Sequence record: ON528738
Direction: 5' to 3' (one strand)
DNA: 64,000 nt
Source: Shigella phage ESh28
Part shown: in pieces, positions 2,372 to 30,053 of the stretch
How positions within the stretch are numbered: the stretch's first letter is position 1
Layout: the number at the start of each line of letters is the position of its first letter
Notes under the pieces: generated by a model
Seen by the model: the letters and a program-made list of their open reading frames with translations, nothing else
The model's database searches: none
Told to the model about the DNA's origin: nothing
Program-made: the position numbers and the translations under genes

Positions 2372-5512
<3,141 letters not shown>

Positions 5513-28224: not shown

Positions 28225-28297
28225 TGGGAATTAGCCAAGTTGGTAAGGCATAGCACTTTGACTGCTAGATGCAAAGGTTCGAGTCCTTTATTCCCAG
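28225..28297 (+). tRNA. tRNA-Gln (anticodon UUG)
   Basis: Cloverleaf: acceptor tgggaat/attccca, anticodon stem tagca/tgcta with loop cuUUGac, T-loop TTCGAGT. Confidence 0.85.
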
Positions 28298-28298
28298 C

Positions 28299-28385
28299 GC
28301 GAGAATGGTCAAATTGGTAAAGGCACAGCACTTAAAATGCTGCGGAATGATTTCCTTGTGGGTTCGAGTCCCACTTCTCGCACCA
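28299..28385 (+). tRNA. tRNA-Leu (anticodon UAA)
   Basis: Class II tRNA: acceptor gcgagaa/ttctcgc, anticodon stem cagca/tgctg with loop cuUAAaa, long variable arm, encoded CCA. Confidence 0.85.
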
Positions 28386-28390
28386 AATTT

Positions 28391-28464
<74 letters not shown>

Positions 28465-28474
28465 ATTTAATTTA

Positions 28475-28548
28475 CTCCGTGTAGCTCAGTTTGGTAGAGC
28501 GTCTGCTTTGGGAGCAGAATGTCGCAGGTTCAAATCCTGCCGTGGAGA
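28475..28548 (+). tRNA. tRNA-Pro (anticodon UGG)
   Basis: Acceptor ctccgtg/cgtggag, anticodon stem tctgc/gcaga with loop uuUGGga, T-loop TTCAAAT. Confidence 0.8.
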
Positions 28549-28550
28549 CT

Positions 28551-28640
28551 GGAGGCGTGGCAGAGTGGTTTAATGCACCGGTCTTGAAAACCGGCAGTCG
28601 CTCCGGCGACTCATAGGTTCAAATCCTATCGCCTCCGCCA
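28551..28640 (+). tRNA. tRNA-Ser (anticodon UGA)
   Basis: Class II: acceptor ggaggcg/cgcctcc, anticodon stem ccggt/accgg with loop cuUGAaa, long variable arm, encoded CCA. Confidence 0.85.
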
Positions 28641-28645
28641 GTTTT

Positions 28646-28721
28646 GCTGATTTAGCTCAGTAGGTAGAGCAACTCACTTGTAATGAGAAGGTCGGCGGTT
28701 CGATTCCGTCAATCAGCACCA
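28646..28721 (+). tRNA. tRNA-Thr (anticodon UGU)
   Basis: Acceptor gctgatt/aatcagc, anticodon loop cuUGUaa, T-loop TTCGATT, encoded CCA. Confidence 0.85.
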
Positions 28722-28722
28722 A

Positions 28723-28797
28723 GGCCCTGTAGCTGGAAGGTTCAAGCAAGCGACTCATAATCGCCAGATGGTGGTTCAATTCCACCCAGGGCCACCA
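28723..28797 (+). tRNA. tRNA-Ile (anticodon CAU, lysidine type; Met by anticodon alone)
   Basis: Acceptor ggccctg/cagggcc, anticodon loop cuCAUaa, T-loop TTCAATT; occupies the position of T4 tRNA-Ile. Confidence 0.75.
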
Positions 28798-28809
28798 AAT
28801 TATGAATTA

Positions 28810-28896
28810 GGGGAGTTATCCCGTAGAGGTAGCGGTGTGGACTGTAAATCCATTGTCATTGCGACTCGGGTGGTTCGACTCCATCACTCCCCACCA
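28810..28896 (+). tRNA. tRNA-Tyr (anticodon GUA)
   Basis: Class II: acceptor ggggagt/actcccc, anticodon stem gtgga/tccat with loop cuGUAaa, long variable arm, T-stem ggtgg/ccatc, encoded CCA. Confidence 0.75.
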
Positions 28897-28900
28897 ATTT

Positions 28901-28975
28901 GGATGTGTAGCTCAATGGCAGAGCGATCGCCTGTTAAGCGATTGGTTATAGGTTCGAATCCTATCACGTCCGCCA
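28901..28975 (+). tRNA. tRNA-Asn (anticodon GUU)
   Basis: Acceptor ggatgtg/cacgtcc, D-stem gctc/gagc, anticodon stem atcgc/gcgat with loop cuGUUaa, T-stem atagg/cctat, encoded CCA. Confidence 0.8.
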
Positions 28976-28979
28976 AATC

Positions 28980-29055
28980 CGAGGCATAGCTCAGAAGGAA
29001 GAGCAAGGACCTTCTAAGTCCTAGGTCGTAGGTTCGATCCCTACTGCCTCGACCA
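28980..29055 (+). tRNA. tRNA-Arg (anticodon UCU)
   Basis: Acceptor cgaggca/tgcctcg, D-stem gctc/gagc, anticodon stem aggac/gtcct with loop cuUCUaa, T-loop TTCGATC, encoded CCA. Confidence 0.85.
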
Positions 29056-29401
29056 GACAAGAAGCCGGGTCGCTACCGGCAAGTCGTCGGACTGATGTTC
29101 CCTGGGTAAGGACTGGCATTAACAAATCTTTACGATCGGTTAATGCCCCCTTACATCACAGCAGAAACGGCGCACCGAATTATCGATTCGAGGAAATATC
29201 TTTGCCGTAAGCCGAGTAGCGTTTTTGACGGAACGTTCGGATATGGTCGAGATATGGCCTTTTAAAAATATTGAGTAGCGTCAACTACTTAATAACCGGG
29301 TTCGAATCCCGGCGTTTCGTACAAACACTTGCCTTAGCAGGTGGAACCCCGACAAGGTTGCCGCAAGGCTTAGCCCCGACCGAAAGGTTGGGGCTTTTTA
29401 G
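29056..29401 (+). ncRNA. GC-rich structured non-coding region, candidate stable small RNA(s) with a tRNA-like acceptor/T-arm module
   Basis: About 345 nt without a credible ORF and clearly GC-richer than flanks; about 29229-29320 has acceptor pairing cggaacg/cgtttcg and a canonical T-arm ccggg-TTCGAAT-cccgg but no clean anticodon arm; ends in a terminator. Confidence 0.4.
29372..29401 (+). terminator. rho-independent terminator closing the tRNA/stable-RNA transcription unit
   Basis: Hairpin agccccgacc-gaaa-ggttggggct followed by TTTTT. Confidence 0.7.
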
Positions 29402-29489
29402 TTTGAATCGCATAGAGAATGCTGTTACGGATAATAACAAAGTAATAAATAATTAATAACCAACCGATAAATTATTTCAAGGATTTTAA

Positions 29490-30053
29490 ATGAAAACCTA
29501 TGCCGAATTTTTAACCGAAGCAGCAAAATTACCATCTGAAGCAGATCTTACTAAAGTATTCTTCCAATTGGACCCAAAAGACCGTGGCGATTTTCTTAAG
29601 TGGAAAGCTAAAGCTATTGAAATGTATAACATCGATAATAGTTCTTTTACGATGAGTCAAGAAAATAAATTCAATAAAGCATTTTTCAAAATTTCTAAGA
29701 AACTGGCATCAGGCGCTCAGGTTCCTAAATCTGCCTTAGCTACTCCTGAACGCGCACCCGTCAAAATTTCTAAGAATATGTTTGACACTAAAAAATATGT
29801 TAATGCTTTGAATAAAGCTCTTGATGCATTGGATGATGCAAAGAAGGCAGCCCGCGATCTTCAAGACGTGTACACCGATTTTGATCGTAAAACTAAAGGT
29901 TCTATTTCAAATAGTGAACGCAATAGTGTAAGTGTTTATTCAGATAGCCTTGATGTTCTTGGCGATGCGTATACTGAAATTAAAAATCGTATTAACACTG
30001 CATCTAAGCTAAAAGCTGCTGCCGAAGCTATAATAACTAAACTGGGTAAATAA
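29490..30053 (+). CDS. internal protein III-like (capsid-targeted)
   Basis: 187 aa; N-terminus MKTYAEFLTEAAK matches the internal-protein capsid-targeting consensus (MKTYQEFIAE-like); Lys/Ala-rich. Confidence 0.6.
   Translation: MKTYAEFLTEAAKLPSEADLTKVFFQLDPKDRGDFLKWKAKAIEMYNIDNSSFTMSQENKFNKAFFKISKKLASGAQVPKSALATPERAPVKISKNMFDTKKYVNALNKALDALDDAKKAARDLQDVYTDFDRKTKGSISNSERNSVSVYSDSLDVLGDAYTEIKNRINTASKLKAAAEAIITKLGK

Follow-up and report, generated by a model that had tools for sequence, protein, structure and literature searches.

Two small, stable RNAs of bacteriophage T4, species 1 and species 2, have been known since the 1970s. T4 reads its transfer RNA (tRNA) genes as a single primary transcript, with termination after the species I RNA gene (PMC2330249). 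During T4 infection both RNAs were detected by RNA sequencing (RNA-seq) as RNAC and RNAD and were confirmed by Northern blot (PMC9697503; PMC3014915). Their function is given as unknown in a review of 2010 and again in papers of 2022 and 2025 (PMC3014915, PMC9697503, PMC12685909). Here we investigated the block at positions 29056-29401 of a 64,000-nucleotide (nt) stretch of Shigella phage ESh28 (sequence record ON528738; hereafter the window). An earlier note, made from the sequence alone, had singled it out as a GC-rich, non-coding region after tRNA-Arg. The block corresponds to the stable-RNA module of T-even phages, consisting of rnaD, rnaC, a 3′ trailer and the operon terminator. Sequence identity and fold together leave us highly confident that these are rnaD and rnaC RNAs of the T4 type, with folds kept by compensatory evolution on the plus strand only. 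As an element the module was already known, since T4 records carry annotations for both RNA species. Comparison adds the correct acceptor stem of rnaC with its U·U mismatches, a CCA encoded in one clade, covarying loops, a pattern of separate gain and loss for rnaC and rnaD, and a hypervariable rnaD arm.

A blastn search with 29056-29401 against 50,697 phage records matched 799 of them, nearly all from T4-like phages of Enterobacterales, and 679 covered at least 80% of the query. Identity to the T4 tRNA-region record X03016 was 94.1%, and the features beneath the match are annotated there as 'species 2 RNA' (4615-4734), 'species 1 RNA' (4741-4877) and 'pot. terminator'. The RB27 record annotates non-coding RNAs (ncRNA) rnaD and rnaC at positions aligned to the window, and the T4T record labels the same two positions 'small, stable RNA; species 2 / species 1 RNA' (rnaD, rnaC). 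Alignment with the T4 region downstream of tRNA-Arg, a check that the earlier note had proposed, thus maps both RNAs onto those of X03016 and bears out its suggestion of stable RNAs like T4 species 1 and 2.

Window coordinates of rnaD, rnaC and the trailer were transferred from X03016 and RB27 by pairwise alignment. On the plus strand, to which all features below belong unless stated otherwise, rnaD occupies 29057-29177 (121 nt; aligned to X03016 4615-4734 and to RB27 rnaD). It is followed by a 6-nt spacer, AAUUAU, at 29178-29183, with U at position −1 according to the alignment and a survey of flanks. Next comes rnaC at 29184-29320 (137 nt including the discriminator U; 29183-29321 by RB27-style annotation), 3′ of rnaD and 5′ of the operon terminator. 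Within the aligned block, rnaC differs from X03016 4741-4877 by one substitution, and a covariance model of rnaC recovered one copy only in the window (154.8 bits, E = 1.4e-39). ESh28 and T4 share 94% identity over the block, the order tRNA-Arg, rnaD, rnaC, terminator, and equal RNA lengths. They differ at the 3′ end of rnaD (CACCG in ESh28, CACCA in T4), at the tip of its arm (several substitutions and indels), and in the upstream cluster, which carries tRNA-Tyr and tRNA-Asn where T4 has segB.

The GC content is 0.45-0.53 over 28900-29400, against 0.27-0.36 in adjoining DNA, in agreement with the earlier note. That note had also proposed a covariance-model search and RNA folding as checks. 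The former returned only tRNAs and noise, with no Rfam 15 family for rnaC or rnaD either at the gathering threshold across the whole window or at E up to 10 over 28950-29500. Folding was informative for both RNAs, with z scores of −4.15 for rnaC and −3.1 for rnaD.

Fold and tRNA-like end of rnaC

We assembled rnaC homologs from Tequatrovirus, Gaprivervirus (SP18), Karamvirus (AS6, UFV01, Pet-CM3-4, EnA02, VIPECLOM01), the unclassified Enterobacter phage MY742, Kanagawavirus PEi20, Marfavirus P545, and IMG/VR and metagenome contigs. A strict motif gave 26 distinct sequences, to which the MY742 type was added. The minimum free energy (MFE) of ESh28 rnaC is −50.1 kcal/mol, and RNAalifold on ten homologs yielded 45 pairs, 21 of them compensatory. 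When an explicit structure was laid over 22 distinct sequences, 92.1% of the cells were paired, compared with 36-44% in controls whose 3′ partners had been slid by 1-3 columns. In the same set 22 pairs were changed on both sides, and none of 500 shuffles reached the observed values. These compensatory base pairs span five phage genera, and a fold conserved to this extent gives no support to the decayed tRNA that the earlier note had entertained. Because many pairs are G·U, the fold exists only in plus-strand RNA. Single-sequence MFE folds of PEi20 and P545 rnaC failed to give the consensus, and both rely on the alignment.

The acceptor stem is formed by CGAUUCG (29184-29190; nt 1-7 of rnaC) and CGUUUCG (29313-29319), the latter followed by the discriminator U29320, as supported by covariation and the flank survey. 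Positions 4 and 5 are two U·U mismatches, invariant in the 22 sequences. Pair 3:137 (3:70 in tRNA numbering) is A-U in 9 and G-C in 13 of them, and the other four pairs are invariant Watson-Crick pairs. The 3′ strand directly abuts the T arm at 29296-29312 (CCGGG, loop UUCGAAU, CCCGG). The earlier note had recognised this arm correctly as CCGGG-TTCGAAT-CCCGG, and its third stem pair covaries from G-C (10 sequences) to U-A (12 sequences).

In place of a D arm stands a long arm (29191-29260), in whose helices 3 and 4 a total of 11 pairs are changed on both sides. At its base, invariant AGG (29191-29193) lies opposite CCU (29258-29260); above this, 60 nt form helices at 29196-29255 that are interrupted by a 3-nt bulge and capped by the hexaloop UUGACG (29225-29230). 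A single-stranded U/A-rich linker (UUUAAAAA; 29261-29268) follows, in which several A positions are invariant in the alignment, as is U29269 just behind it. Hairpin 2 (29269-29294; 26 nt) consists of a 10-base-pair (bp) stem, 8 of whose 10 pairs are compensatory, and a hexaloop CGUCAA at 29279-29284. One nucleotide separates it from the T arm.

By its fold, rnaC is a tRNA mimic in which the acceptor/T-arm half is tRNA-like and the D and anticodon arms are replaced. It shares with a canonical tRNA the 7-bp acceptor stem that runs straight into a 5-bp T stem, the UUCGAAU T loop, the discriminator, CCA in one clade, a site inside tRNA clusters and short tRNA-like spacers. It differs in having neither an anticodon arm nor a D arm, in its 137 nt and in the two invariant U·U mismatches of the acceptor. 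In keeping with the earlier note, which could not fold a normal anticodon arm, ARAGORN and the Rfam tRNA models were silent on 29056-29401, and tRNA detectors and RF00005 give no call on rnaC. The tRNA-like domains of transfer-messenger RNA (tmRNA) and YrlA also belong to non-decoding RNAs that carry an acceptor/T-arm module on a non-tRNA body. In YrlA, the RNA ends form a Ro-binding stem, not an acceptor stem. Even with E values of up to 10 allowed over 28950-29500, no Y RNA or YrlA family of Rfam appeared, and no tmRNA model matched the whole of rnaC. Rows of the tmRNA family with E of about 1-9 comprised 26 nt at 28950-28975, within tRNA-Asn, and a 17-nt permuted-tmRNA match on the T arm (29296-29312).

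The T-loop pattern UUCRA is kept in all homologs except the MY742 type (L007 601-739; also in L031, L082 and L094), where the T loop UUCGAAU is replaced by UGCAUGC and UGGCC by UCGCC, all helices being kept. Since the two changes co-occur, a contact between the T loop and the GG at the elbow may exist.

The two hexaloops UUGACG (29225-29230) and CGUCAA (29279-29284) are exact reverse complements in 22 of 22 sequences, and the complementarity ends precisely at both loop boundaries. For two hexaloops, the probability of a random match is about 1 in 4096. Their counterparts in the Marfavirus clade are UUGGCG and CGCCAA, a double change from A-U to G-C. Calculated duplex energies were −5.5 and −7.6 kcal/mol for the cognate combinations, −4.9 kcal/mol for the G·U intermediate and −0.4 kcal/mol for the mismatched combination. 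This pattern suggests that the hexaloops form a kissing loop closing the two non-tRNA arms. The TAR-TAR* and ColE1 RNA I-RNA II kissing complexes likewise have six-nt hexaloop complementarity bounded by the loops. In rnaC both loops lie within one molecule, and the proposed contact is drawn from sequence and a single covariation event.

The annotated ends of species 1 RNA in X03016 are exactly the first acceptor nucleotide and the discriminator base, which fits a tRNA-type maturation of rnaC. The classical size of species 1 RNA, ~140 nt, would equal the 137 encoded nt plus CCA. In the flank survey all Tevenvirinae copies had UACAA at the 3′ end, and the Marfavirus-type copies (6 of 6) had UCCAA. 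CCA is accordingly genome-encoded in the Marfavirus clade, and ACA follows U29320 in ESh28. In the maturation pathway we propose, host tRNA-maturation enzymes would cut the operon transcript. RNase P would cleave at 29183/29184, making 29178-29183 the predicted leader of rnaC, and the 3′ side would be trimmed to U29320 before addition of CCA. The loop-loop kiss would then close both non-tRNA arms into a compact, nuclease-resistant body.

The two RNAs do not always occur together. In Karamvirus, rnaC lies between tRNA-Trp and tRNA-Gly with 6-7 nt spacers and without rnaD, and in Kanagawavirus it stands behind an open reading frame (ORF). In Dhakavirus IME281, rnaD is followed directly by the trailer and rnaC is precisely absent. 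By these arrangements, rnaD and rnaC are independent modules that are separately gained and lost. Among the IMG/VR loci searched from 93 motif matches we found 17 true copies of rnaC, and a motif scan of metagenomes found 11. A second, differently anchored scan of IMG/VR gave no further homolog, and the motif occurred in 0 of 185,579 bacterial and archaeal genomes scanned. According to these motif scans, the rnaC family is confined to Tevenvirinae genera and Marfavirus.

The rnaD arm and a host-adaptive substitution

rnaD folds at an MFE of −43.5 kcal/mol, and RNAalifold gave 25 pairs, 5 of them compensatory. Its 5′ hairpin (29064-29080) has a covarying closing pair, and the closing helix (29083-29089/29168-29175) contains a bulged C. 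The remainder is a long irregular arm with near-invariant flanks and a hypervariable tip. The central ~50 nt (29100-29160) occur in at least three unrelated sequence types (compared across L006, L003, L035 and L118), and the four arm types fold to the same rod by MFE. We read this sequence pattern as that of a mosaic or hypervariable arm. Conservation does not extend to the 3′ CCA that T4 species 2 encodes, which reads CCG in ESh28 and elsewhere CCT or CAG. The 5′ hairpin together with a T-rich run (29064-29080) scores as terminator-like on the minus strand, probably incidentally.

A convergent single-nucleotide polymorphism (SNP) at position 164264 was described in phage BW-1 during adaptation to E. 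coli ECOR34, with virulence on this host rising from 0.17 to 0.98 (PMC12685909). On the RNA strand, the SNP is an A to G change in the apical hairpin of rnaD, converting the 3′ strand of CACAG-UUUUA-CUAUG to CUGUG and restoring a C-G pair. The change regains the consensus rod fold and shifts the MFE from −25.9 to −31.0 kcal/mol. We mapped the SNP to nt 76 of the extracted 116-nt stretch (about nt 75 of the ~115-nt rnaD); the original report puts it at about position 41, at the 3′ end (PMC12685909). The ancestral BW-1 41-mer was found exactly in 5 of ~150 records with that arm type. Identity distributions were shifted as expected if nearly all other records carry G, and the natural contigs examined also had G. 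In our structure model the adaptive change is a repair of an rnaD helix, an argument that the structure of rnaD has a bearing on growth in a particular host. Reinterpreted in this way, the SNP points to E. coli ECOR34 as a host in which an rnaD phenotype could be measured.

Possible functions and alternative readings

We tentatively propose that rnaC may act as a decoy, a non-decoding tRNA look-alike aimed at a host factor that recognises tRNAs by their acceptor/T-arm end, although we would not call this probable. In such a mechanism rnaC would occupy or titrate the factor, and rnaD would be a separate rod-shaped RNA whose variable arm is important in particular hosts. Both RNAs would be dispensable accessories serving host range or anti-defence, outside the core functions. 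We favour a host-specific accessory role over processing by-products for three reasons: the tRNA-like end of rnaC, modular gain and loss, and the hypervariable rnaD arm. A more specific version, which we regard as somewhat more speculative still, is that both are host-range RNAs acting in counter-defence or takeover. In this version rnaC would be a decoy whose non-tRNA arms the intramolecular kiss locks into a ring, and it would offer a host tRNA-binding factor an acceptor/T-arm end bearing the invariant tandem U·U; rnaD would be an independent rod with its hypervariable arm as a specificity module evolving against a host factor. With the BW-1 result read as a helix repair, ECOR34 would be the first host for assaying a phenotype.

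Several points weigh against this interpretation. Support for a decoy or accessory role is indirect, and no phenotype is known for rnaC. In ESh28, the RNA ends, the CCA addition and the RNase P cleavage are predictions. The U·U mismatches of the acceptor and, in Tevenvirinae, the missing encoded CCA are unusual in a substrate of tRNA type. The covariation behind the kissing loop goes back to a single evolutionary event within one clade, the hexaloops could instead be complementary for the sake of dimerisation, and the unequal lengths of the arms raise the question of whether an intramolecular kiss is sterically feasible. Lastly, the BW-1 SNP concerns an rnaD arm type other than that of ESh28.

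Alternatives exist for what the locus encodes. That the block codes for small proteins, from ORFs at 29143-29265 (ORF40, 40 amino acids (aa)) and/or 29271-29456 (ORF61, 61 aa), we consider next to impossible, even though both match PHROG families of unknown function (phrog_24262, 6e-33, and phrog_28391, 2e-32) and 'hypothetical protein' is annotated at the locus in many GenBank records. In T4 itself ORF40 is interrupted by a stop codon, and SP18, L035 and L043 lack its start codon; ORF61 begins with TTG, varies at its C-terminus and is disrupted in L043, AS6, UFV01, PEi20 and P545. The substitution pattern tracks base-pair covariation rather than codons, curated T4 records annotate RNAs here, and the block ORFs, the longest of them 61 aa, gave no Pfam match. 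This upholds the earlier note's view that no credible ORF lies between tRNA-Arg and the next gene (a 187-aa ORF at 29490-30053), and both PHROG families are probably artefacts of automatic ORF calling on an RNA locus. The earlier note had itself drawn a tRNA-derived module of ~92 nt (29229-29320), a decayed or unusual tRNA with cggaacg (29229-29235) and cgtttcg (29313-29319) as acceptor. Both heptamers are present and complementary in the window, the pairing is kept at 89% across the 22 distinct homologs, Rfam aligns tRNA-Sec weakly to 29228-29320 (17 bits, E = 1.4), and two relatives carry automatic tRNA annotations on the same stretch. The 3′ strand of this acceptor is right, but its 5′ strand is not. 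The pairing shows zero compensatory changes, 10 of the 22 sequences leave column 137 unpaired with column 48, and the covariation of column 137 with column 3 is perfect; we therefore rejected 29229-29235 in favour of nt 1-7 (29184-29190). The proposed 5′ strand belongs to the long arm, whose apical helix (helix 4, with 4 compensatory pairs) holds it partly in the loop and partly in the 3′ strand, the annotated T4 species 1 RNA begins 45 nt further upstream, and neither ARAGORN nor the Rfam tRNA model called the module in the window. A separate tRNA-derived module is thus highly improbable, and as drawn it is a mis-registered part of the 137-nt rnaC.

Granting that the locus encodes rnaC and rnaD, two further readings concern what the RNAs do. 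One is that rnaC can be charged like a tRNA, with an amino acid attached at an added CCA, and has a translation-linked or transfer role in the style of tmRNA. Its acceptor stem, T arm and discriminator, and the CCA encoded in one clade, are compatible with this; still, we judge it very unlikely. The true acceptor stem has A3-U70 or G3-C70 and not the G3·U70 of tmRNA, there is no tag reading frame, and neither ARAGORN nor Rfam called a tmRNA in the window. We also know of no E. coli identity set working from the acceptor alone that is matched by C1-G72 with U73, which we count against charging. The other reading is that the structures act in cis only, as processing, stabilising or terminator elements of the tRNA operon, and that the released RNAs are functionless by-products. 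As the last RNAs of the operon, immediately behind tRNA-Arg and ahead of the terminator, they would be well placed for such a role, for example in protecting the 3′ end of tRNA-Arg, and a trans function has gone undiscovered in 50 years (PMC3014915). We nevertheless find it unlikely, if less so than charging. The rnaC fold survives relocation, both to a site flanked by two tRNAs (Karamvirus) and to one that follows an ORF (Kanagawavirus), and the invariant loops, tandem U·U and linker exceed the needs of a spacer. Discrete RNA species are seen on Northern blots in T4 (PMC9697503), and the base-pair repair in the rnaD arm tip was selected in a specific host at a distance from the processing sites. 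Comparative structure together with the reread SNP makes the 50-year-old question of what rnaC and rnaD do more testable.

Spurious ORFs or pseudo-tRNAs are annotated over rnaC and rnaD in many genome records. Two automatic annotations cover ~95 nt at the 3′ side of rnaC (29228-29323), one as 'tRNA-???(aa)' in L121 (323-418) and the other as 'tRNA-Lys(ttt)' in L122 (316-409). We also considered mimicry of the tRNA-Lys(UUU) anticodon loop by CUUUUAA at 29259-29265, which is identical to that loop in sequence. This motif is restricted to Tequatrovirus and does not lie in a hairpin loop of the supported fold, and we rejected it as a feature of the family.

The surrounding tRNA operon

Upstream of the module, a cluster of ten tRNAs (28225-29055) was identified by ARAGORN and the Rfam tRNA model and is annotated in the same order in RB27: Gln, Leu, Gly, Pro, Ser, Thr, a 'Met' with CAU anticodon, Tyr, Asn and Arg. 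The last of these, tRNA-Arg(UCU), occupies 28980-29055 by both methods. By analogy with the single transcript of T4, the ESh28 cluster would be co-transcribed with the stable RNAs. The tRNA at 28723-28797, called Met(CAT) by ARAGORN, stands where X03016 annotates the T4 tRNA-Ile and is probably an isoleucine tRNA with a CAU anticodon that needs lysidine modification. At 28798-28979, tRNA-Tyr and tRNA-Asn replace the ORF of the T4 homing endonuclease segB, an arrangement like that of T2L, RB1 and RB3, which also have Tyr and Asn tRNAs instead of segB (PMC2330249).

Downstream of rnaC, the 3′ trailer (29321-29371), which is conserved in T4 and RB27, contains a hairpin at 29326-29343, identified by folding; the trailer fold has an energy of −36.5 kcal/mol (z = −4.0). 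The intrinsic terminator follows at 29372-29400, supported by a terminator scan, by folding and by the annotation in X03016. Its hairpin (29372-29395) has a 10-bp stem with 7 G-C pairs and a GAAA loop, followed by TTTTT (UUUUU in the RNA), and is the strong terminator that the earlier note had seen at the end of the block. The heptamer CCCCGAC at 29347-29353 recurs in the terminator stem (29374-29380), and pairing of this first copy with the 3′ strand of the terminator could take the place of termination. Several Tequatrovirus genomes carry the terminator sequence of the operon a second time beyond the next gene (L120 607-652 and 1164-1209). This second copy behind the next gene accounts for the two-piece blastn matches spanning ~900 bp, and an insertion within the RNAs was ruled out as their source.

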